The notes beneath the pieces were generated by a model. It did no database searches, was not told where the DNA came from, and was given only the letters and a program-made list of their open reading frames with translations. A stretch of DNA of 64,000 nucleotides from Squalus acanthias (lineage: Eukaryota): the NCBI GenBank assembly GCA_030390025.1, contig CM059432.1, positions 90,584,001 through 90,648,000 on the forward strand, in the 5' to 3' direction. Positions within the stretch are counted from its first letter, which is position 1; each line of letters opens with the position of its first letter. The position numbers and the translations under genes are program-made. Of the stretch, positions 1 to 60,866 are shown piece after piece.

Positions 1-1119
1 TCCACTATTCCATGGTCTATAATATACTCCCAATAGAGTAACCGCACCCATCATATTTCTTAACTGTAAATGAATACATTTAGCCTGTATCATTCCTATG
101 TTCAAGTGCTGTAATGGAATCATTGATTAACACTGCCCCCATTTGTATAGCTGTGAGAAATTGTTAAGCAGAGGGTGGGAACATGCATGCAGAAGAAGAA
201 ATAATTAAGTGTGCGGTCACTCTGGGGCACTTGTTCATATCTCCTAGTGGTATTGGTTGAAACCAGGAAGTCGGTCTTCAGGTCATCCATTTGGATGGTA
301 AAGATACTACTTCACTTTTCTCTTCATTGAACTTCATCTGCCATTTGTCTGACCACTCTGGTAACCTGTCTATGACCTCCTTAAATCATTTGCATTCTTC
401 CTCACAATTTGTCCTGTATCAGCAAACTGATATCATGCCTATATACCTATCTCCAAATCATGCCTATAAGTGGAAAATAAAAAGTCTTATAAATCCTTGT
501 TATATTACTGCACTCATTCTACCAATCTGATGAACCATACAATTACATTCCCTTTGGTAGCATTGTGCCTTAATTTTCATAACAAATCTCTTATGTAGCA
601 TCTCTTCATTTTTCTTAGGCCTAGATTTTGCTGTCGCAGGGCATCTAATGGCATCTGCCATTAGTGAGACTTGCTCTTGTATGTTTAGGTTTTAACATTT
701 TTTGCGTGGCAAGTTTCTGGAAGTGCAAGCTAATAATGTCGCAGCAAGGGAAAGTGGGCATCTGGGACCTGTATGAACAGGGAAAGCAACTGAGTATCTC
801 TTTAACCAATCAGATTGCAGGATTGTGAAATAAACAGCGCAAGGTCTGAGAAGGAATTGTAAATTAGAGTGGGTGAAATCAATGTCAAATCATGTACAGA
901 AATAGAAATAAAGAGAGGGAAATAAATATTGGATTAAGAAAGAAAAAGAGACAGAAAGGAAAAGTAAAACAAATTAACATTTAAAATTTTACATTTTTAA
1001 AATCTCCAACAATTAAAACCTGAAGGATTGAGACTCCACACATGTAATAGTTAATTATCAGTGCCAGAGAGGTTGATTGGCAGTAATTAACACTTATCAC
1101 GTCATTAAAAGGATACTTA

Positions 1120-1554
1120 GGGCTGGATTTTGAATGACCCATGGAGTCGGGTTTGGAGGCGTGTGGGGGTTAAATTTGCGGGGTCGGGGGTCCCGACCCC
1201 ATCCCGACTCCACGCAATTTTGACAGAATCAGTCGCGGGGTTCCCGACTCCGTCCCGCCTCCAAGAGGCGGGAGAGGCCATTAAAGCCCTTAATAAGACC
1301 TAAATTGGCTCTGTAATGCCATTTTGAAACGTTTCAGCTAGTTTAACCCTTTTCCGACGTGAAGTACGCCTGATGTGAAACACTCCAGTGAAACCTGGCG
1401 GGAGCACAAGTGGATAGCTGATAGTCAGCTGCAGGTGCACTATTACAACGGAGATGTGATGAAGGTAGTAGTAGTATTAGGTCTGAAAGTCGCCTCTGAT
1501 GCTGCTGCATTGAATGTCTTCAGAGACTGCATGGCCTTTGCTGTGTGAGGACTT

Positions 1555-1592
<38 letters not shown>

Positions 1593-1826
1593 TCCAGGTC
1601 CACTCACAGCAAGTCCCTGACCTGCAATGCAGCAGCAATGATAACATCATCAAAGGCGACTTTCAGACTTAAACCACTAATTAGTTCATGGTTTCCCACA
1701 TGCTGGAACTCAATTGCCCAATTAAGTGAAAAGTGCATCATTCATCCACATTAATCTAGAGTCGGAGGGGGAACACGAAATGCGGATGACACGACCCCAA
1801 CCCGACCCCAAGACAAAATCCAGCCC
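1120..1826. mobile_element. Harbinger-type MITE nested in the family A copy
   Basis: Perfect 13-bp TIR gggctggattttg/caaaatccagccc; TTA target duplication at 1117-1119 and 1827-1829; internal (CT)n. Confidence 0.85.
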
Positions 1827-1975
1827 TTAGACTTGAAATGACAAGACTAAACTTTCCGTAGTGAGTTTAGTTCGTATCTACAATAGCAAAATACTGCGGA
1901 TGCTGGAAATCTGAAATAACAGAAAACGCTGGAAAAACTCAGCAGGCCAGGCAGCATCCGTGGAGAGAGAAACAG

Positions 1976-2012
1976 AGTTAACGTTTCAGGTCGAAGACCT
2001 TTCGTCAGAACT
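1976..2012 (-). ncRNA. Minimal hammerhead ribozyme motif, family 1 (3' pseudo-LTR)
   Basis: Minus strand reads AGUU-CUGACGA-A-AGGUC-UUC-GACCU-GAAA-CG-UU-AACU: intact core, 5-bp stem II, stem I AGUU/AACU, palindromic ACGU helix III. Confidence 0.8.
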
Positions 2013-2324
2013 GGAAAAAAGCAGGAAATGGAACAGATTTTAAAGCAAGTTTGGGGGCTGGGAAATGGGGGAGGGGATGAAAGAACAAAAGGGAAGGTCA
2101 GTGATAGGATGGAAGGCAGGAGAAGTAAAGAGGCATTAAGAGATATTCAAGGCAAGAGGAGGTGGTAATGGGACATGTTAAGGAACAAAGGATGGCTCTA
2201 GATGAAGTGTGAATTGCGCTGGCAGAATGAAGAACTGCTGCCATGTGGGAGGAAAGAAAAAAAGGCACAAACAAAAAGTGTGGTTAAAATATATATATAT
2301 ATATATGTGTGATAGGGGCCGAGG

Positions 2325-5039
2325 TTATGATCTGAAATTGTTGAGTCCAGAGGGTTGTAGAGTGCCTAATCGAAAGATGAGGTGCTGTTCCTTGAGCTTA
2401 TGCTGAGCTTCCGTGCAACAATGCAAGAGGCCGAGGACGGTGAGGTCTGAGTGGGAATGGAGCGGAGAATTAAAGTGACAGGCCACCGGGAGCTCGGGGT
2501 CCTCCTTACGGACTGAACGGAGGTGTTCCGCAAAGCGGTCACCCAATCTGCGTTTGGTCTCCCCAATATAGAGGAGACCACATCGTGAGCAGCGAATACA
2601 GTTTACTAAATTGCAAGAAGTACAAGTAAATCGCTGTTTCACCTGGAAGGGATGTTTGGGGCCCTGGACAGTGGGAAGGGGGGAGGTATAAGGGCATGTG
2701 TTGCATCTCCTGCGCTTGCACGGGAAGGTGCCGGGCGAAGGGAAGGGGTGCTGGGGGTGGTAGAGGAGTGGACTAGGGTGTCACGGAGGGAGCGGTCCCT
2801 ACGGAATGCTGAAAGGGTAGGTGAGGGAAGATTTGTTTGGTGGTGGGATCACGCTGGAGGTGGTGGAAATGGCGGAGGATGATCCGTTGAATGTGGAGGC
2901 TGGTGGGGTGAAAGGTGAGGACAAGGTGAACTCTATCGTGGTTCCGGGAGGGAGGGGCAGGGGTGAGGGCAGAAGTGCAGGAGATAGAACGGACACGGTC
3001 GAGGGCCATGTCAACCACAGTAGAGGGGAATCCTCGGTTGAGGAAAAAGGAAGACATGTCGGAAGCACTGGTGTGGAAGGTGGCATCGTCAGCAGATGCG
3101 GCGGAGACGGAGAAACTGGGAGAATGGAATAGAGTCCTTACAGGAGGCGGGGTGGGAGGAAGTGTAGTCCAGGTAGCTGTGGGAGTCAGTGGGCTTGTAG
3201 TGAATGTTTGTCAATAACCTATCCCCAGAGATGGAGACGGAGAAGTCGAGGAAGGGAAGGGAAGAGTCGGAGATGGACCATGTGAAGGTGAGGGAAGGGT
3301 GGAAATTGGAAGCAAAGTGAATTAAATTTTCTGGTTCAGGATGAGAGCAGGAAACGGCACCGATACAGTCATCAATGTACCGGAAAAAGAGGTGAGGGAG
3401 GGGACCCGAGTAGGACTGGAACAAAGAGTGTTCCACATATCCCACGAAAAGGCAGGCATAGCTAGGACCCATGCGGGTACCCATAGCAACACCTTTGATT
3501 TGGAGGAAATGAGTGGAGTCAAAGGAGAAGTTGTTCAATGTGAGAACAAGTTCAGCCAGGCGGAGGAGGGTGGTGGTGGTTGGGCCTCTGTTCAAGGAAG
3601 AAGCGGGGCGCCGTCAGGCCATCCTGGAGGGGGATGGAGGTGTAGAGGGATTGTACATCCATAGTGAAAAGGAGGCAGTTGGGGCCAGGAAACTGTTAAA
3701 GTGACGGAGGGCGTCGGAAGAGTCGCGGATGTAGGTGGGAAGAGACTGGACAAGGGGAGAAAAAATAGAGTCGAGATAGGAAGAGATAAGTTCCGTGGGG
3801 CAAGAACAGGCTGAAACGATGGGTCTACCAGGGCAGTCCTGTTTGTGGATCTTGGGAAGGAGGTAGAAGCGGGCTGTGCGGGGTTGGGGAACTATGAGGT
3901 TGGCGGCTGTGAGGGGAAGATCTCCAGAGGAGATGAGGTCAGTGACAGTCTTGGAAACGGTGGCTTGATGTTCGGTTGTGGGGTCATGGTCCAGGTGGAG
4001 GTAGGAGGAGGTGTCGGAGAGTTGGCGTTCAGCTTCCGCCAGGTAGAGGTCGGTACGCCAAACAACAACAGCACCACCCTTGTCAGCAGGTTTAATGACA
4101 ATGTCGGGGTTGGATCTGAGAGAATGGAGTGCTGCAAGTTCAGAGGGAGGTAGGTTGGAGTGAGTGAGGGGAGCAGAGAAATGGAGAAGGCCGATATCAC
4201 GGCGGCAGTTTGCAATGAAAAGATCTAGAGAGGGTAAGAGGCCAGAGGGAGGGGTCCAGGTAGAACGAGAATTCTGAAAGCGGGAGAAAGGGTCAGCCGT
4301 GCGGGGGGAAGACTCCTGGCCAAAGAAGTGGGCACGGAGGCGAAAGCAGCGGAAAAAGAGCTCAGCATCGTGCCGAGCTCGAAATTCATTGAGGTGGGGG
4401 CGTAAGGGGATGAAGCTCAGGCCTTTGCTGAGGACTGATCGTTCGGGGTCAGAGAGGGGAAGGTCAGAGGGGATAGTGAAAACGCGGCAGGGGGCGAGAT
4501 TGGGAGAAGGGGGGTCAGAGGAAAGTGAAGGGGAAGAAGGTTCTGGAGGGGCATTGGTGTTCAAGAGTTGATGAAGCTTGCGATCCTTGACATCAGAAAG
4601 GAAGAAAAAAAGTTTTTTGTTGAAGCGTCGGATGAGTCGAAGGATGAAATGGAACTGTGGACCTGGACAGCTTTGAGAGAGTGCGTTGGTGCTGCTGAAG
4701 AGAAAGGTCGAGAGTGTTCATGTGACGCCGCATGGCATTGAGCGTGGATCTCAAGATGCGGCGAGAGCAGTAGTTCGAGGAACGATAAATATCTTGGAGA
4801 TATTTGTAATCCTGGGTGGATCCGAAACACGAAGGGTGGAAGTTTAGGTGGAATCCACGTGGAATAAGTCGGAACCGGAGACAGTTGCTGAGGAAAGTAA
4901 TGTGGCTGTGAAACCGAGTCTTGGCAGATACCTGATCAAACACGAGAAGGGAAACTGAAAGCAATGAAGATGAACAAGGTTGAAGAGACAAATGGAAATC
5001 TCGTCGGAGAGAAGTGCAGAACTTCTTCAAGGTGGGCAT
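2325..5039 (-). pseudogene. Frameshifted Penelope polyprotein: RT + Cys-rich linker + GIY-YIG endonuclease
   Basis: Motifs IKPADKGGAVVV, FYLLPKIHK..PGRPIVS, GVAMGTRMGPSYA, RYIDD, LPFLD, YKPTDSH; CKRRRCNTC at ~2693-2720; IRCSRCGLLYIGETKRRLGDRFAEH and TLQPSGLN. Split over several frames. Confidence 0.93.
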
Positions 5040-5174
5040 TCCTAGAAAAGAGGTGGCAGTGAACCAAACACTAATACAATAGCAAAACACTGCGGATGCT
5101 GGAAATCTGAAATAACAACAGAAAACCCTGGAAAAACTCAGCAGGCCAGGCAGCATCCGTGGAGAGAGAAACAG

Positions 5175-5211
5175 AGTTAACGTTTCAGGTCGAAGACCTT
5201 TCGTCAGTACT
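5175..5211 (-). ncRNA. Minimal hammerhead ribozyme motif, family 1 (5' pseudo-LTR)
   Basis: Same core as 1976-2012; one substitution in stem I (AGUA instead of AGUU). Confidence 0.7.
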
Positions 5212-6597
5212 GGAAAAAAGCAGGAAATGGAACAGATTTTAAAGCAAGTTTAGGGGCTGCGAAATGGGGGAGGGGATGAAAGAACAAAAGGGAAGGTCAG
5301 TGATAGGATGGAAGGCAGGAGAAGTAAAGAGGCATTAAGAGATATTCAAGGCAAGAGGAGCTGGTAATGGGACAGGTTAAGGAACAAAGGATGGCTCTAG
5401 ATGAAGTGTGAATTGCGCTGGCAGAATGAAGGACAGTTAGTATCTACCGTGCAAGTATAGGATCTTCACGCTGCTCAATGCATTTGAATGGGGAGCCAGA
5501 CAGCGAGATGTGTTTTCGCGAAGCTAACGAAGCAACTTGGACAGCAACTTTTGGATATTCGCCATTAACCGCACATCTGCCCTGAAGTTGTTGAACCATT
5601 TGCGTATAAGTAATGTCGTTAGCCTCACTCTTATTTTGAGAGCAAAATCTGTCCCTTTATCTTTTATTGCTCATGTACATGTTCAGCTCCTTAGCTGCGG
5701 TGTGTTGCCCATGCCCAAATTCAGTATTTTTCTTTCTCCTTTCCTTACTCTCCAACGAGAGAAAACAAAGGAATACTGTTGCAAAGTAGAGCTATCCTGT
5801 AAATAGGTGTTTTATATTTTAATGGATTCCTTTCACTTGTACTAAGGCTGCTGGAATAGCAGCACTCTCTCGTTGAAGAGCAAAAAGGAAAGGGAGTAAC
5901 AGTGAAAACCCATCATCAGCAACAACCAAACAGAGTGGGAATACAGAGAGAAACACATGGAGGAGCAGGTCAAGAGTGGGTGAGGTAGATTGTAAGATGC
6001 TGTGAGCTGTGTTATGAATACTGATGGGATTGTGAAATGAGAATTATCTGTGGTGTAGTTGGATGACTAGACACTGCATATCTATTGCCAGATTAAAATG
6101 TTGCATGGTGTATTAAGTTTTTACTTGGTGACAGGAATGTTGCTATCATTAGCCGATTTTACTGGAGTATCTTTAATGAGCCAAATATGTGCATATGTTA
6201 AAATACTTGAATTATTAACAGACAATAAGTCATTCACTTTTATTATTTTAATGTTTTACTATGATATTTGTTGACAAACAATGACTTAATTAATCATTAT
6301 TATTCACCAAATTATGATGGTCAATTTTACCTGTTTCTGCTTTCATAATTAGCTTAAATCTGAACTCAAGTTTTAGTTCTAGCAATACAATATTTTAGTC
6401 ATGTTAATTATTGTAGGTGAGGTATTATTTGTGATTTAAACATTAATAGAGACAGCTTGTAATTGGCTTCTTTCATACGTTTAAAATAGTTCATTAATTG
6501 GCTATAGTTGCAATAAACGTATAGCTTACCAAACGCAAATTTGCGTGTCTTCTTCATAAGATCATTACACACTAAAACATTTGTTTCCTAATTAAAG

Positions 6598-6750
6598 GTT
6601 CAAAAGAAGAAAGTTACTGAACTGAAAGATCAAATGAAACAACTTCAACAGCAATACAATGAAAAGGTGGAGGACAATGGACGCTTACAAGCCCGACTTG
6701 AAGCTTGGATGATCACTGCGCAAAGTGAACAAGATATCCTTTCAAATGAG
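6598..6750 (+). CDS. Internal exon A of a long coiled-coil protein gene (VQKKKVTELKDQMKQLQQQYNEKVEDNGRLQARLEAWMITAQSEQDILSNE)
   Basis: Acceptor ...ttcctaattaaag and donor GAG|gtaatt; 153 nt, phase 0/0, no stops, heptad-like Q/E/K/L pattern in non-repetitive AT-rich flanks. Confidence 0.85.
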
Positions 6751-6832
6751 GTAATTTCTTGAATTTTTAATAAATATTCAGACAAATGTATCTGAAGTTA
6801 ATTTTTATCATTTTATATTTATAAATCTATAG

Positions 6833-6916
6833 GTCTTTTGTAAGGAGGACATAATCCATAAACTACGAATGAAGCAACTAGGTCAAGATGAAAAATGTAA
6901 TATAGCAGAAGAACAG
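6833..6916 (+). CDS. Internal exon B (VFCKEDIIHKLRMKQLGQDEKCNIAEEQ), followed by a GC donor
   Basis: Acceptor ...aaatctatag after an 82-nt intron; ends CAG|gcaagt; 84 nt keeps frame with exons A and C. Confidence 0.75.
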
Positions 6917-7215
6917 GCAAGTTTCTTAAATTTTGTTTGGTGTTGATATAGCTTGTCATGCAAACAATTTTAATAATTGAAACTATTTTCAATCTTAAAA
7001 TAATTACATCAAATTCAATAGACTTTATTAAATTCTAAACTGCTTTTATGCTATAAATGCAAACTTATACATCCCAAACAAATGCCAGCTTATGTTTATG
7101 TGTTGTACCAATATATACTCCCCCAATATTTTTCCTCATCTAGCAGCCTTCACTTATTCAAGAGAAAGTATTGGCTATCAATGGAGAGAACCATTATGGT
7201 CATAATAGTTTTAAT

Positions 7216-7976
7216 GACCCTGAATTTCCGATCGGAGGCTTCCTGCGTGCGGATGCCTCCGATCGGAAAAAATCGACGCACTTACCTGCTGGCCCGGTAG
7301 GTCCCGAGACTTTCGCTCCTGGGCCTCACCACTACGAAATGCGCAGAGACCCAGGTATCCCAGGGGCGCATGCGGTTCGCAATCACCCCTGGGATCACGT
7401 GGGGCATGGGGAACCAATCAAAGAAGGGAATCCCCCTTCACACTTTTGACAGGTCTCTACGCACAGAACTGTCAAAAGTATGAATGGGGATCACATTTAA
7501 AAACACAGTTAAACATTAAATAATTCACGTATTTAAAATTAGTTAAAATTACATTAAATTACATATTTTAAACAAAAATTTAATTTTTTGAAAAAAATAA
7601 TTAAAGTTTTTTATGGGGCTAAAAATAAACTTACCATTTTTAAAAGTATTTTTAAATTATAAACGAGTGGAAAAAAATGTATTTTATTTATTTTTTTAAA
7701 CTCTTATGCTGGAAAAAGCTGGCCTTACGCCTGCTTTTACCAGGTGTAAGATTTTTTAAGGTTTTCAGCGGGCGGAAGTTGTGCAGAAAGCGGAACTCTC
7801 CACCTGCGGAGGCCCTCCTCCCGGGCAGGCGGATGATCTGTCAAGAGGATTCTTGACAGATCGCAAGTGCCGGGTTTCATCGCGTGCACTTTGCATGCCT
7901 GAAACTGGCACTTGCGCGGCCCCTACGGGTGTGTACACACCTCGTACGAACCTGTGGGGGTCGGAAAATCCGGCCC
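7216..7976. mobile_element. Harbinger-type MITE, family C
   Basis: Imperfect TIR gaccctgaatttccga/tcggaaaatccggccc; AAT duplication; GC-rich arms with AT-rich core; similar to 16942, 48430 and 63115 copies. Confidence 0.8.
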
Positions 7977-8434
7977 AATACTTTTTGACACTGACCCCAA
8001 GATGGCACCGTATTGTTTTCCCTTCCCAGAATCTATTAAGTGCCTCCCATGATGTGATGCATCAGTTCTTTTCTCCATTGTCAGGAGTGCAAGAAAGGGA
8101 AAAAGATCAAAAGGAGGATGAAGTAGAAAGAATTAAATTGACAGAAAATTTGAGTCGGGATTGACAGGCATGTATGTGAATGCACAAAACATTTAAAAAC
8201 TCTTTTTTCAGATGAAAGCAATGTTCCCTCTAATTGTTTTTTTCGTGCGTGGTCCCTTCCCAGCAGCAACAGCTTGTGAGCAGCCTGTGCAGGACCTCTG
8301 GATTGATGCGCAGCCGAGCACACGCGCACCTTAGGGGAAAGTTGGTTAGAAGCATTAATTACCATGGAAGGGTTTGACATAGCAGCTATAACACAGTCGT
8401 GGTTGATGTTAGGGCAGGACTGGTAACTTAATAT

Positions 8435-9561: not shown

Positions 9562-10299
9562 AGTGTGTTTCTAGTCCAACAAGGAAAGAATTATTAAAAA
9601 TAAAAGCAGAAAATGCTGGAAATACTCAGCAGGCCAGGCAGCATCTGTGGAGAAACAGTTAATGGCCGGAATTTTTCTCACCTCGGCGGGTCCAGGGCAG
9701 GTGATGTCGGTGGCGGGTCGCGGCCCTGCTGCTTGCTCCCTCGTGCTCTGGAAAATGAATTTACGTTGATGGGGCTTGTTAAGCCTGCCCAGCGCGTTTC
9801 CCAGCCCAATTAGAGGAAGTGGGTCTGGTGACGTCATTTATGACGCGGCATCAGCCAATTTCCTTAAAGAGACCATGGTCAACTTTTTTTTGACAGTTAT
9901 GCTGTCAGTGTTCTGCAGCATTGAAGTGCTGCAAACACTGACAATGACTGCACAGAGGCAGAGGGCTGCACCCAGGTTCTCCCATATGCTTATGGAGGGA
10001 GTCACAGCACACAGGGAGGTCCTCTTCCCTTCTGATGGGTGGAAGAGACCTCTCCAGGAGAACAAAATGGCCTGGTTGCACATTGCACAGGAGGGCACAA
10101 GCAAGGAGGTGGTCAGGAGGACCTGGCTGCAGTGGCGCAAACCTTTCAATTATCTCATTAGATCACGAAACATTAGTACAAAGCCACACTCAACCTCATG
10201 CTGCTGTGCCTCTCATCACGTCCCCATCACTCTGCCTTCCCTACCCTACTCCTGCACATCTTTACTCACACCAACTTACCTTGCACCTCCACCCATTCC

Positions 10300-16160: not shown

Positions 16161-16868
16161 TATGTTTCAAGTCGTTGACCTTTCATCAGAACTGTTACAG
16201 ATGTAACAGGTTTTAAGCAAATACAGAGGCAGAGAAAGGAGGGTTGGGAGGAAGGAAGAAAAGGGAAAGTCTGTGATAGAATGGAAGGCAGGAAAGATGA
16301 AATGACAAAAGCGATGATGGTGCAAGGCAAAAGTGGGTGGTAATGGGACAAGTAAAGAAACAAAAGATAGGTCTCTCAGATGGGGAAACAAAAAGCAATG
16401 AAGATGAACAAGGTCAAAGAGACAAACGGAAATCCCATCGGAGCGAAGAGCAGGACTTCTTCAAGGTGGGCATTCCTGGAAGAGAAGTGGCAGTGTTGGA
16501 TTAAATACTAATGCAAAAGCAAAATACTGCGGATGCTGGAAATCTGAAATAAAAACAGAAAATGCTGGAAATACTCAGCAGGTCAGGCAGCATCTGTGGA
16601 GAGAGAAACAAACTTAACGTTTCAGGTCGATGACCCTTCGTCAGAACTGGAAAATGTTACAGAAGTAACAGGTTTTAAGCAAGTACAAAGGCAGGGAAAG
16701 GGGGGATGGGAGGAAAGAATAAAAGTAAAGGTCTGTGATCAGGTGGAAGGTAGGAGAGATTAAGTAACAAGTAACAACAGAAAATGCTGGAAACACTCAG
16801 CAGGTCAGGTAGCATTGTGGAGAGAAACAGAGTTAACGTTTCGGGTTGATGACCCTTCGTCAGAACGT
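16161..16868 (-). mobile_element. Non-autonomous Penelope derivative: tandem pseudo-LTRs with three hammerhead motifs (~16161-16193 split, ~16613-16650, ~16831-16866)
   Basis: Order is pLTR, ~120 nt matching the ORF start (compare 4958-5062), pLTR, partial pLTR; cores CUGAUGA/CUGACGA...GAAA; the left part of the first pLTR lies at ~9595-9663. Confidence 0.85.
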
Positions 16869-20295: not shown

Positions 20296-20452
20296 TGATG
20301 TGGAAATGTTGGACTGGGGTGGACAAATGTGAGAAGTCGCACAACACCAGGTTATAGTCCAACAGCTTTATTTGAAATCACAAGCTTTCGGAGCGCTGCT
20401 CCTTCGTCAGGTGAAGCTGTTGGACTATAACCTGGTGTTGTGCGACTTCTCA
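20296..20452 (-). mobile_element. 157-bp non-coding element with hammerhead motif, family 2 (~20378-20414), and partial terminal inversion
   Basis: 13-bp TSD caaaaaatattca (20283-20295, 20453-20465); minus strand UCAC-CUGACGA-A-GGAGC-AGC-GCUCC-GAAA-GC-UU-GUGA; ~20415-20453 inverts ~20329-20367. Confidence 0.85.
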
Positions 20453-21916: not shown

Positions 21917-22063
21917 ATGCAGCATCAAGAGAAGCTACTGGAACAATTGCATCAAAAATATTTGGCTGCAGTTAATATGGTTGAAAAGCAACAGCAAATG
22001 ATTAATTCTCTAGAACAGGATCTTCAAACCGCCGTGATTGCAGAAAGGGAAATGGCTACTGGG
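21917..22063 (+). CDS. Internal exon C (MQHQEKLLEQLHQKYLAAVNMVEKQQQMINSLEQDLQTAVIAEREMATG)
   Basis: Acceptor tttattttag, donor GGG|gtaaaa; 147 nt, phase 0/0, coiled-coil composition. Confidence 0.85.
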
Positions 22064-23351
22064 GTAAAACAACAATATTGTTTTTAAATACAGGAATTAT
22101 AACTGAATTATGAAAATGCTGTGAGGGTATATTCATTGTTAAATGGATAAGTGCAGTCCTTTGCCATTTTGTGTAACTAAATTATCTTAAAAGTAATAGT
22201 GTTCAAGAAAATAGTGCTTAAAAAATGCATCTCCTAAATATATATTGTTTCTTGGAATTACAAGCATGCACTTCTGTTTCTGAATCTCTATCTATAGCTA
22301 TATCATACATGAACTTTAAATGATGTTTGCCTTTTTTTGCTCTAGATTTTCATTGTTATGTGAATTGGTGAGATGGTAGTGGACTTGAGTGTATTTGGGA
22401 GGGTGCGACTGGAAGTGTTTCAGCTGATTTGACTGTATCGTGTAAATTTGCTTCGAAAGTAACCCATGTTAAAAAGATGATCTCCCACTTTCCAGACAAA
22501 AAAATCTTCAAACAGTAGTAGCCCTACCTTCAGGCAGCAGTACATCCAAGTTTCAACTCTAAGTCTGCAGAAGCTCGCATTTCAATACTGGATCCCCTCT
22601 CACTGACTCTAGATTTGTTGCTTTCTCCTCTGGTTCCTGGTCTCCTATTCACCTTTCTCTGGTTTCTGATCTCTCACGTACACCTCTCTCATTTATTGAT
22701 CTTTCCTTCCCCCATTATGTAGGCAGCAGTGTCTTAGTCAGGTATCCGAGGGAGGGGAGAGGGCAACATTTAATTCAAATATAAACATGTTGTGAAATTT
22801 GTTCAAATATGCGCTTAATTGACTGCTTTTTAAATTTAAAAGACATTTAAATTTGTTTCTGCTTTTCTGGACAGTATTTCTCAGTCTGGCTGCTTCAAAG
22901 TATACAATCTGTCTGAAGCTTTTGGAGAGTAACAGTCATATAACATCTATGAGCAGTAAGAAAAGTAAAAGAACTGCTCCATTAGAATGCAATAGTTGTG
23001 ACTTTTATTTTCTACTTACTTGAGATAATTAAATTTAATAACTATTTTAAATATATGTTGCTATTCCTGCTGTTCATTCACTCTTACTGTTTAATAAATT
23101 TGTTTGCCAGTTGAAGCCTACATCACAATTTAATGTAGTAGTATTTTCCCATCTTACAAAGTTAAAGAAGATCATGTGAGGATACGTGATATAAGAAGCA
23201 AGCCAAAACAATGTTATGAGGGTTCTCTATTCAATCCCAGGGTGTGCTACAAATTTACCTAGATATTATGGCAAAGTGAAAGGATACTGGGACATAGGGA
23301 GCAACAGATCACCTAAGGGTTGTGGTCGATGAAAATCCAAAAACATATCCA

Positions 23352-24012
23352 GACTGCGGAACACCTCCGTTCAGTCCGTAAGGGGGACCCCAAGCTTTCG
23401 GTTGCCTGTCACTTTAATTCACCGCTCCATTCCCACTCAGACCTCACCGTCCTCGGCCTCTTGCATTGTTCCACGGAAGCTCAGCGTAAGCTCGAGGACC
23501 AGCACCTCATCTTTCGATTAGGCACTTTACAGCCTTCTGGACTCAACATAGAGTTCAACAATTTCAGATCATAACCTCGGCCCCTATCATATATATATAT
23601 TTTTTATCCACACTTTTTGTTTGTGCCTTTTTTCTTCCCTCCCACATGGCAGCTGTCCTTCATTCTGCCAGCGCAATTCACACTTCATCTAGAGCCATCC
23701 TTTGTTCCTTAACCTGTCCCATTACCAGCTCCTCTTGCCTTGAATATCTCTTAATGCCTCTTTACTTCTCCTGCCTTCCATCCTATCACTGACCTTCCCT
23801 TTTGTTCTTTCATCCCCTCCCCCATTTCCCAGCCCCTAAGCTTGCTTTAAAATCTGTTCCCTTTCCTGGTTTTATCCAGTTCTGACGAAAGGTCTTCGAC
23901 CTGAAACGTTAACTCTATTTCTCTCTCCACGGATGCTGCCTGGCCTGCTGAGTTTTTCCAGCGTTTTCTGTTGTTATTTCGGATTTCCAGCATCCGCAGT
24001 ATTTTGCTATTG
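23352..24012 (+). mobile_element. 5'-truncated Penelope copy (GIY-YIG C-terminus + pseudo-LTR)
   Basis: ORF 23320..23574 AEHLRSVRK...TLQPSGLNIEFNNFRS; near-identical reverse complement of ~1882-2535. Confidence 0.9.
23878..23914 (+). ncRNA. Minimal hammerhead ribozyme motif, family 1, sense to the host gene
   Basis: agtt ctgacga a aggtc ttc gacct gaaa cg tt aact; predicted cleavage after U23910. Confidence 0.8.
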
Positions 24013-24429
24013 TCCAGAATATAAGATTGTTTTAAAAAAAGAAATCAACCATATGCTTTCTTGCCCTTTTACTGCTGTCTGAATCTCTGTGTTTTGGTGT
24101 GCGGAAACTGTATCCTTTTCCTAGAGTGAGGGGAGGTTAGTGGGATAGTGCTTAGATTCGGTATCTGAAGTATATAGTGAAGTGTAGAGATCTACAAACG
24201 GCCTGTTGATTTTGTTGAGGTCACAAGTAGATTGCCATCTACTTTCCTACAGATGCAGTGGGTCTGCTGTAAAGTATTTGTTTAAAATTTTCTGTGCTTA
24301 TCGTCTGCCCATAGTATTTTGCTCAGTAAACGGAGGAGTTTTTCTGTGTCTGTGGACAGCAGGTTGTTTAGCTCCCATCTGGTCTGAATCAGGGTTCTTT
24401 CAGTCACTTTGGACTTTATTTTTATTTTT

Positions 24430-24660: not shown

Positions 24661-25011
24661 CTTGATTACGTTTAGAAGGATTTACAGTTGGTGTACTGTA
24701 TTCATATGCATGTAGGCTACATTCCAAACTTGAATCCTCCCCAGCAAAAAAAAATAAGTTCAACTAAAACTGATTTTTATTTAAAAAGTATGCCTATATC
24801 TGAGTAAATAAGCGCCGAAATAAGGTACATGCTAGTAGAATAGGTAGAAAATTACAATATATTTTCATATTCCTCTCTTTATTTAAGTGATCATTAACAT
24901 AATTTGTTGCATGCAACTATGCCGTTTCTCACGTCAGCTTTATCCCTTTGAGACCAATGTTAGCTTGCAAATTATTTTTATGAAAGTTGGCTGTCATTTT
25001 TCTTTTTACAG

Positions 25012-25179
25012 GTGGCTCTGTGTGAAGAAACCATTAAACATTTGCAAATGGAATTATCTTCATTACATTCAGCGCAAGACTTGGACAATAAGACCATTAC
25101 CCATAAGAAACAGATTATCAATGAACTACAGCAAGAAAGTGATTCACTGAAGCAGAAATTGAAAGAAGCGCTATGCAAG
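25012..25179 (+). CDS. Internal exon D (VALCEETIKHLQMELSSLHSAQDLDNKTITHKKQIINELQQESDSLKQKLKEALCK)
   Basis: Strong acceptor tttttctttttacag, donor AAG|gtggga; 168 nt, phase 0/0. Confidence 0.85.
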
Positions 25180-25391
25180 GTGGGATGATATATAATAACT
25201 ATGTTTGTATTACATTAAGTATCTATATCCTATGTTAAAAATCTAACATAGGATACGCACTTCCTGTCCACAAGGCTTACTTTCTATTATCAAAATTTTC
25301 CTCCGCACTTGTGTGCCAATTTTTGCCATTGTTAATTTTTGAGTCCACATTTCCTATCCAATTTTGCTGTGTCAACTATCACTCGTCACAG

Positions 25392-28705: not shown

Positions 28706-28885
28706 TTGAGCGATAGTGAAGGACAAGTTAGCACTCTGGGCTTGGAAGTAAATATGTTGAAGATGAGATTGGTGGAAAAGACTGATCTGGTTCAAAACCT
28801 GGAAGACCAAATTCTAAAACAGCACGAGTCCTTAAACAGAGCCAGTGAAACTCTCAGAGGTACCAAGAAGGCAGCTGGTAATAAG
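28706..28885 (+). CDS. Internal exon E (LSDSEGQVSTLGLEVNMLKMRLVEKTDLVQNLEDQILKQHESLNRASETLRGTKKAAGNK)
   Basis: Acceptor ttacttttag, donor AAG|gtaaaa; 180 nt, phase 0/0; coincides with ORF 28706..28912. Confidence 0.85.
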
Positions 28886-30699
28886 GTAAAAACTGTCACG
28901 AATCAAGAGTAATGCATCTCCATATGAAAGGGGGGATCCTGATTTGGGAAAGATTTGCAGGTTGACCTGTTCCTGAATATAGGAAGCAATAGTTAGCATC
29001 AATGATTTAAGGTCTATAACCACAGCCCACATCATACATAAAACCAAAGCATTTTTCAGATACAACAGGATAAATTCAGTGATCCCACACTTCTAGCAGG
29101 GAGTTACATAGAAGGAGTGTTGGATGGAGATAGGGCTACAACACTGTAGCCTCAATTCTCCCAGCCTTTGGGCAGGGCTGCCTGCAGGGAGGATGAGATT
29201 TACCCTTATGTTTAAAAATGATAGTAAAAGAATACACATAAATTTAGTATTCATAAATGTATTATACAATAACTAACAAATTAATTCTATCTTTGGCTTT
29301 TGAGAAATGTTGCTTTGTTTTCATTCATTCGGCTTTCAGATACAAATGGAAAGACTAACATCTAAAATGAGTAGGTCCCTTTAAGATTTAACATCATAAA
29401 GTGGCATGACAGCTGCAAGGTTTTCCCCCACCACATATTGTATAAGCCTCATTTTTCCCATTATTGGCACTTTCATTGTAACAAGGACAAAAAATTTCTA
29501 AAGCAACACTTATACAGTTGCTACACATTTAAAATTTGGTCCTTTACTAGCCAATCCCTCATAGCATTGTACATGGGAGGGGGGAATAAAATTCAACTTA
29601 GGCGCAAAAGGGGTGATAGCAGATCAGCCGCCTTTATACATCCCGCCGAATTTTCCTTTCCATTGACTTTAGAGAGAATATGGCCTTCAGTGACTCCCTT
29701 TCCATCCCCTACCCCAGTCGCTCATGCTTCCCCATCCCCTTGCTCCCATTATGTCCCCAACCAATTTACCTTCACAACCACTTTCAGTTTCTACACCCCC
29801 TCACACATATTGCTACACCTACTCACTCCCATCTAGGTTACAACCTACCTCTTCTTTGAACTACCTGTTCATGCCCTGCATTCTTTGTACCCCCTTGCTC
29901 TGCTGTCATCCACCTGACCCTTACCCTTCCGTCCACTCTCCTCTACTTCCACCCACTCTCCTGAAGAGCAGGTGTTGAGAGACCAGAGGCCCCCTCAACA
30001 TGTTTGTCTCATACCCTACTCCTGCTTATCTATTTGCCTCAAATGAGGAAAGAAACTGTCTGTCTGCTTTTCTTTCCATTTGTGTCTTTCTGTCTGTCTG
30101 GACTCGGTTTTAACTCCTGGGCAGAAATGCAGCAAAGAGAGTGGTTGGTTACATCTAGGAGAGGAAGATTTTGGAGGGAATCTCCCATGTTGCAGCTTGA
30201 AAAACTTTCTATGCTTTAGAAAGATGATCTTTATTAATCTTCAACTACCACCTATTGCCCCAATATCTGTACTTTCTAAAATAATGTAAGATGCTGATAC
30301 CTTACAAATTATCACTGGGACGCTCCCTGATGGCTCAAATAATTTATCTAGTGAGCAATGAGTTTATCTAGTGAATAGTTGAGTTATGTAAACCAGGAAG
30401 GTGCAAGACTTGATCCTGTAGTAAAGGAAATAAAGTTAGCTCACTTCACAATGCTTTAAGGTGGTCATCCCAAAATCAGCACTTTCAGAGGACCAGAAGC
30501 AGAATGCCAGGGAATCAAGCCCAGGGAAATCTAAACAAAAAAGGGGGACAAAGTCAAATCAGTAAATGCATTTCAACAATGAAGTGGGGATATGATTTTT
30601 AAAAAGTTTTCCTCACAACAGTTTTCAGTTGTATTAATTATAATAATCAGAGAATCTATACACTAACATAGGCATGATTGCACTGCACAGCTGGTGAGC

Positions 30700-44423: not shown

Positions 44424-44507
44424 ATTCATCAGAAAGAAAGTAAACTGTGTGGTTTGCAAAAAGAGCTAGTGGTGGCTCAAAAGCAGTACTCTGCCTGCTA
44501 TGAAGAG
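44424..44507 (+). CDS. Internal exon F (IHQKESKLCGLQKELVVAQKQYSACYEE)
   Basis: Strong polypyrimidine acceptor cttccttttttgttttatag, donor GAG|gtaata; 84 nt, phase 0/0. Confidence 0.8.
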
Positions 44508-44644
44508 GTAATACATTTTATGAATAAATAAACTTTAGAATGTTTTTTCATGACAAATTGGTTATTAAGTTTCATGCTTTAATCTTATAAAACAGTTTGT
44601 ATAATGGTTAGGATAAGGACATATTATCCATCAAATTTTACAAT

Positions 44645-60655: not shown

Positions 60656-60866
60656 AAGTGAGAAGTCGCACAACACCAGGTTATAGTCCAACAGCTTTAT
60701 TTGAAATCACAAGCTTTCGGAGCGCTGCTCCTTCATCAGACTTCACCTGACGAAGGAGCAGCGCTCCGAAAGCTTGTGATTTCAAATAAAGCTGTTGGAC
60801 TATAACCTGGTGTTGTGCGACTTCTCACTTTTGTCCACCCCAGTCCAACACCGGCATCGCCACATC
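60656..60866 (+). mobile_element. ~210-bp palindromic non-coding element with hammerhead cores on both strands (family 2)
   Basis: 12-bp TSD ataattgtacaa (60644-60655, 60867-60878); arms 60652-60739 and 60747-60834 are reverse complements with one mismatch. Confidence 0.88.
60743..60779 (+). ncRNA. Minimal hammerhead ribozyme motif, family 2
   Basis: tcac ctgacga a ggagc agc gctcc gaaa gc tt gtga: stem I UCAC/GUGA, stem II GGAGC/GCUCC, palindromic AGCU; predicted cleavage after U60775. Confidence 0.8.

Follow-up and report, generated by a model that had tools for sequence, protein, structure and literature searches.

Minimal hammerhead motifs and the probable RNA template of a decayed Penelope-like element in Squalus acanthias

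Which RNA is copied by a Penelope-like element that carries a hammerhead motif in each of its two pseudo-LTRs (pLTRs)? The question is raised by a locus of Squalus acanthias (assembly GCA_030390025.1, contig CM059432.1, positions 90,584,001 to 90,648,000, forward strand; these 64,000 nucleotides are called the window, and all coordinates count from its first letter). Template processing, circle formation, regulation and the part of a mere passenger are all still considered as roles for the hammerhead of such elements. The initial annotation had proposed that the two pLTRs form a double hammerhead that excises a unit-length, possibly circularisable RNA, which is not a new proposal but the model published in 2014 (Cervera and De la Pena, 2014; PMC4209133, available in part). 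Taken by itself the locus is unimportant, being one decayed copy of an abundant repeat; what it offers is a limit on the template, since its target duplication and the places where short copies end point to an RNA that was either uncut or circular and not a linear excised unit. We consider it quite probable that this is a dead Neptune-type Penelope-like element of a family whose main template is uncut RNA, whose ribozyme is off by default and in which cutting is a minor event.

The insertion, its coding remnant and the host gene

The element and its flanks comprise the following features.

1882..5434, minus strand: whole insertion, a partial-tandem Penelope-like element of 3553 nt (upstream pLTR, ORF, downstream pLTR), delimited by pLTR alignment and flanking duplication
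5435..5447, minus strand: upstream target-site duplication of 13 bp, 12/13 identical to 1881-1869; its last 2 nt also fit the element
1869..1881, minus strand: downstream target-site duplication, matching the upstream copy; its first 3 nt could equally belong to the tail of the element
5075..5434, minus strand: upstream pLTR, which repeats the 3' end of the element with its tail but is truncated on the 5' side, 97% identical to 2235-1879
1882..2235, minus strand: downstream pLTR, the native 3' end, from the pLTR alignment
1882..1960, minus strand: structured stretch that follows the ribozyme and has the optional tail at its end (fold z -2.56)
about 1913-1882 (downstream) and 5110-5075 (upstream), minus strand: optional tail, placed by loose-end clusters at 5110 and 5070-5076
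2289..2306, minus strand: (TA)n tract within the 3' untranslated region; the copy at 23.6 kb has it too
2325..5039, minus strand: decayed reverse transcriptase (RT) and GIY-YIG reading frame in seven pieces, from tblastn with the intact relatives P0095, P0002 and P0003
2694..2720, minus strand: C-X4-C-X2-C zinc-finger-like linker between RT and endonuclease, its three Cys invariant in 10/10 aligned proteins
2328..2620, minus strand: GIY-YIG endonuclease remnant with CCHH residues, its first tyrosine lost
23355..24013, plus strand: 5'-truncated sister copy of the same subfamily, 96% identical to the pLTR, with an intact hammerhead motif at 23882-23910

The 13-bp duplication is present at both ends (12 of 13 bases identical; an equally good match occurred in none of 3000 random flank pairs), and therefore the 3553 nt from 5434 to 1882 were inserted in one event. 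The insertion is 1.11 units long and shows the partial tandem arrangement with pLTRs and an optional tail of 30-40 bp. The pLTRs are direct repeats of about 355-360 nt with 97% identity; compared with two other copies in the window, four substitutions appear private to the upstream pLTR, and five plus one 3-nt deletion to the downstream one. On the minus strand, 1960-1882 is predicted to form a 9-bp stem that closes two hairpins, followed by a further hairpin, and may be where the element's protein binds and primes.

The reading frame retains the single-ORF order of RT and C-terminal GIY-YIG with CCHH residues, together with a DKG motif, and its likely start codon is the ATG at 5039. The two hammerhead motifs do bracket this RT/GIY-YIG frame, as had been claimed, but the frame itself is not intact, being broken by six frameshifts (near 4720, 3690, 3585, 3092, 2820 and 2740). 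The first GIY tyrosine is replaced by Asn (2603-2601) in this copy only, the change at 2603 being private. No Pfam family matched the seven ORF pieces at E 0.01, the best result (GIY-YIG, E 0.019) falling below the cut-off, whereas RVT_1 and GIY-YIG are both recognised in their intact relatives. Of 1158 candidates, 515 are related to the RT piece; among those with a name, the best matches are proteins of sharks and rays at 64-76% identity. Nothing meaningful came out of PDB sequence searches with the pieces of RT and endonuclease, and no match was confirmed in viral contigs searched with relative P0021.

A CX2-5CxxC linker between RT and endonuclease marks Neptune and is shared with Nematis (PMC8557442, available in part). 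Only Neptune and Poseidon are reported from the sampled vertebrates in the accessible part of bioRxiv 10.64898/2026.07.22.740005, and we therefore prefer an assignment to Neptune over Nematis, an assignment that comes from the linker and the reported vertebrate clades.

The neighbouring host gene encodes a long coiled-coil protein, whose shark matches carry unstable names (PMF1-binding protein 1-like, EEA1-like).

6595-6753, 6833-6916, 21917-22072, 25009-25182, 28706-28906 and 44424-44516, plus strand: exons of the host gene, 76-100% identical to shark proteins

Taken together, the position of these exons (plus strand, from 6595 onwards) and the lack of a match in 1-6600 for the first 250 residues of one relative place the element antisense to the host gene and probably within an intron. 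A suspected further exon at 5847-5984 gave no match with five test proteins, of which one (P0123) was a valid query. Judged from its six frameshifts, the lost GIY tyrosine, a private change in stem I (see below) and its orientation antisense to the host gene, the present copy is dead, its protein-coding capacity gone.

Two minimal hammerheads, their folding and conservation

5175..5211, minus strand: upstream minimal hammerhead with a stem I of 3 pairs, cut predicted between 5179 and 5178
1976..2012, minus strand: downstream minimal hammerhead, predicted cut between 1980 and 1979, core intact

The motif AGUU-CUGACGA-A-AGGUC-UUC-GACCU-GAAA-CG-UU-AACU was found in both pLTRs exactly as the initial annotation had written it (5211-5175 and 2012-1976, minus strand), and the single stem I change reported for the 5' copy was verified as A for U at 5208 (stem I position 2.1, next to the core). 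Both motifs contain the core CUGANGA / GAAA / UH in type I order (C3 at 5207 and H17 at 5179 upstream; C3 at 2008 and H17 at 1980 downstream), and their spacing is the 3199 nt originally given. The downstream motif has a stem I of 4 bp and a stem II of 5 bp. In both, helix III has no intramolecular form and the palindromic stretch ACGU stands in its place; an extra A is present between positions 9 and 10.1. Since the upstream pLTR repeats the element's 3' end in truncated form, the two hammerheads are a single family trait seen twice.

A generic scan for minimal hammerheads gave 10 matches in the window against 1.06 +/- 1.1 expected from 100 shuffles, and a stricter scan (stem II of at least 4 pairs and a CG centre) gave five against none in 100/100 shuffles; in view of this excess, the motifs are not due to chance. 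Seven of the 10 generic matches belong to this element's family and three (20410, 60739, 60747) to a second family. Eight of the 10 are found elsewhere in the window than in the present element, and the motif is no peculiarity of it.

20382-20410 and 60711-60739, minus strand, and 60747-60775, plus strand: second minimal-hammerhead family, with stem I UCAC/GUGA, palindrome AGCU and G-C at 10.1-11.1

The covariance-model search suggested in the initial annotation had a negative outcome: in 1-8000, with E values up to 10 admitted, Rfam gave three chance-level matches and none to a hammerhead family, as expected for a motif without helix III. A metagenome scan with the 21-nt tail motif found nine loci, all nine matching the motif itself only and taken as chance.

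The presence of minimal type I hammerheads in the pLTRs of Penelope-like elements, taken as established in the initial annotation, agrees with the available text of PMC4209133, which describes such motifs (min-HHR) in both pLTRs about 3 kb apart as well as many solo copies, reports them from Xena, Poseidon and Neptune elements of fishes and includes a coral Neptune element with motifs 3033 nt apart. The traits given there are a type I core, no helix III, palindromic 15.1-16.1/15.2-16.2, an extra base between 9 and 10.1 and a short helix I. The shark motifs are the same in core, absent helix III, palindrome, extra base, short helix I, pLTR location, spacing of about 3 kb and numerous solo copies, whereas the shark subfamily has A-U at 10.1-11.1 instead of the usual G10.1-C11.1 (recurrent, but not part of the descriptor). 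No shark is named in the available text or in two of the supplement files of that paper. The motif also resembles the small Penelope-like hammerheads of Lunse, Weinberg and Breaker in its short palindromic stem III; these, as described in the accessible part of a review that also repeats the excision and circle model (PMC6765202), have an extremely short palindromic stem III and cleave as dimers.

Stem II is predicted to be stable (pair probability 0.93-0.99) and stem I to be unformed in context (0.00-0.03), the monomer preferring an inactive hairpin that hides the core by pairing UGACG with CGUUA (-9.1 versus -5.9 kcal/mol for stems I and II). That the motif can only fold as a dimer thus stood for helix III, which is formable only between two copies, through the palindrome ACGU here and AGCU kept in the second family; it did not stand in the sense of a favoured dimer, as the unaided active double hammerhead is predicted ~13 kcal/mol above the best two-strand fold (nearest-neighbour energies omit the non-standard contacts of the core and show direction, not size, and this value overstates the barrier). 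Pairing of A14 with U17 is predicted to be able to extend helix III unproductively. Because each core of the dimer joins the enzyme strand of one copy to the cut site of the other, the upstream stem I change would weaken cutting at the downstream site.

Across the window copies the core is more conserved than the flanking pLTR sequence: at 11 core positions in five other copies, 0/55 were changed against 29/330 in the following tail (p 0.02, indicative only, the copies being related and not independent). Covariation within this element's family did not exceed that of shuffles (149 of 500). A comparison of the two families shows concerted change of both stems (I and II) and of the palindrome (ACGU in this family, AGCU in the second), with 21 cells changed on both sides (0/500 shuffles; two lineages only), while the core is unchanged. 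Within the family, two of seven copies have the palindrome broken at its CpG (ACAU), and pair 10.1-11.1 is A-U in five of seven, G-U and G-C occurring once each in older window copies. The change at 5208 is private, the other letter making up 98-99.8% of contig depth in four of four sequencing runs, and each pLTR has decayed by about 1-1.6%, stem I included. Since the motif decays after insertion, as seen in the broken palindromes and the private 5208 change, selection on it would have acted while the families were moving and not on the present copies.

In both motifs the 5' strand of stem I is overlapped by a pyrimidine tract with CAG at its end (5232-5209 and 2033-2010, minus strand), which resembles a splice acceptor; for Drosophila Penelope an intron end is reported at the corresponding place (PMC4209133, in its available text). 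No splice joint at the CAG site occurred among the 15 joints listed for the aligned contigs, out of a set with 690 further joints.

End points, insertion length and the RNA template

Contigs of four sequencing runs were aligned to 2241-5450. These are contig data, which cannot show RNA ends, and the depth values add up contig depths and do not count copies. Of the 24 sequencing runs listed, none is recorded as RNA, 18 being RNA by guess only. The largest of the aligned runs gave a depth of 2.5-5.7 million over 5023-5236 and of 35-60 thousand over the 5' ORF (about 50-150x). Depth rises again over 2348-2668, the endonuclease end of the frame, which is the usual excess of 5'-truncated copies. 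Among the loose ends listed, those with unrelated flanks cluster at 5110 and at 5070-5076, 35-40 nt apart, and those on the opposite side at 5206-5212, the 5' edge of the ribozyme, where the private mismatch of the reference at 5208 piles nearby ends onto 5207. No unrelated-flank cluster at the cut site (5178-5179) was present among the 24 entries listed, from a set with 4621 further entries. Short family copies are abundant in the aligned contigs and, among the ends listed, keep the whole core and do not start at the cut site, and none of the seven window copies that span the motif (0/7) starts there. One piece at 9660 that seems to do so was set aside as evidence, as it abuts the 12-bp inverted repeat of a later insertion, its partner abutting the other half of a motif at 16161.

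The only biochemical study concerns PAc, an active Poseidon element of Anolis carolinensis with a pLTR-ORF-pLTR structure and a hammerhead (Frangieh et al., 2024; PMC11167929, available in part). According to that source, hammerhead cleavage is protein-assisted, uncut RNA is the main template, core mutants do not alter insertion in vitro and RNA-seq reads do not end at the site. The two insertion end points of PAc, 30-40 nt apart, define its tail, and the shark loose ends at 5110 and 5070-5076 match this; in contrast, the PAc ORF begins inside stem II, whereas in the shark element about 140 nt separate the cut site from the beginning of homology, and the shark copy is Neptune-type and dead. 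Priming in the tail is shown for the anole element; for the shark family we infer it from the two tail end points.

Tail priming on a doubly cut linear RNA would yield a cDNA of only 70-100 nt without a core, while the 3553-nt insertion between the target duplications encloses two whole, uncut ribozymes and so must have come from an uncut tandem transcript or from a circle that the RT went round more than once. The linear unit-length RNA of about 3.2 kb, put forward initially as mRNA and RT template, is thereby already contradicted as a template, and we hold it to be very improbable. The excised unit does include the two tail sites and the probable start codon (5039); against this, the copy lacks coding capacity, the insertion exceeds one unit, none of the seven motif-spanning window copies starts at the cut site (the 9660 piece abutting a later insertion's inverted repeat), the upstream change would weaken the predicted downstream cut and in vitro the anole element works from uncut RNA (PMC11167929, available part).

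The other form of the published proposal is that in intact members the two motifs form a double hammerhead and release a 3199-nt RNA, which is ligated to a circle and copied for more than one turn, as put forward in the available text of PMC4209133. An insertion of 1.11 units, pLTR differences seemingly private to each side, as expected from a single RNA stretch, and a conserved core all agree with it. An uncut tandem transcript predicts the same DNA, however, and fits the private pLTR differences as well; dimer cleavage in vitro is low and monomer cleavage is absent in the accessible text of PMC4209133, the anole core mutants and RNA-seq reads speak against it (PMC11167929, same limit), and Naiad elements spread without the motif (PMC8557442, in its accessible part). 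We therefore rate this circle as unlikely. Junction reads were rejected as a test for circles, as a ligated junction re-creates ordinary pLTR sequence. That the ribozymes of the present copy were co-opted to cut host RNA is barely credible: the downstream core is intact, but with host exons on the plus strand the pre-mRNA of the host gene contains the motif only as its complement, and both pLTRs decay at about 1-1.6% each with stem I included. Most likely the present copy does nothing.

Our preferred reading, uncut RNA as the main template, has its own weak points, in that the anole element belongs to another clade (Poseidon) and a circular template would leave the same DNA. On this preferred reading, the element would be transcribed as a longer-than-unit RNA; its RT-endonuclease would nick DNA and prime reverse transcription in the tail, 70-100 nt after the ribozyme; and the RT would read straight through uncut ribozymes, giving the 3553-nt insertion and the very many short ribozyme-plus-tail copies, both of which are seen as DNA structures. 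By default the ribozyme would be off, as a monomer without helix III predicted to fold into the core-hiding hairpin. Slow cutting would occur only when two copies pair via ACGU, probably with the element's protein, as suggested by PMC4209133 and PMC11167929 (both available in part), and would be a minor processing or regulatory step and not the source of the main template.

A more speculative extension, which we think quite doubtful, is that the shark family has a non-autonomous unit of 100-135 nt, made of an uncut hammerhead and tail, with its 5' end fixed at the pyrimidine-tract/CAG. Its ribozyme would stay hairpin-locked until a tail-bound protein dimer pairs two copies, and splicing or transcript start at that place would switch stem I. 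Such a fixed 5' end would be like the intron end described for Drosophila Penelope. If true, this would join the dimer and the protein-assisted results in one mechanism and offer a very large natural set of copies; the very abundant shark family would in any case allow a genome-wide count of template-informative ends.

Non-LTR retrozymes carry a type I hammerhead derived from the pLTRs of Penelope-like elements and occur in one chondrichthyan genome (bioRxiv 10.64898/2026.07.22.740005, available in part). They are non-coding tandem units of 51-972 bp, whereas the shark element has a 3199-nt unit with a 2.7-kb coding remnant between its motifs, which rules out such an identity.

Neighbouring repeats

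In all three second-family copies the start lies only a few bases from the core, and the pair at 60.7 kb is arranged head to head, flanked by inverted copies of their tail. On the minus strand of 16161-16866, three older motifs of this element's family lie within 700 nt together with pLTR pieces, resembling a short retrozyme-like tandem array but with uneven spacing (219 and 455 nt). The motif halves at 16161 and 9660 (minus strand) seem to be one motif split mid-way by a later insertion of ~6.5 kb with 12-bp inverted repeat ends. A small inverted-repeat element (1116-1830; 17-nt arms) adjoins the 3' end of the Penelope-like element and contains another inverted pair (1477-1672), which encloses a (GA)n tract.
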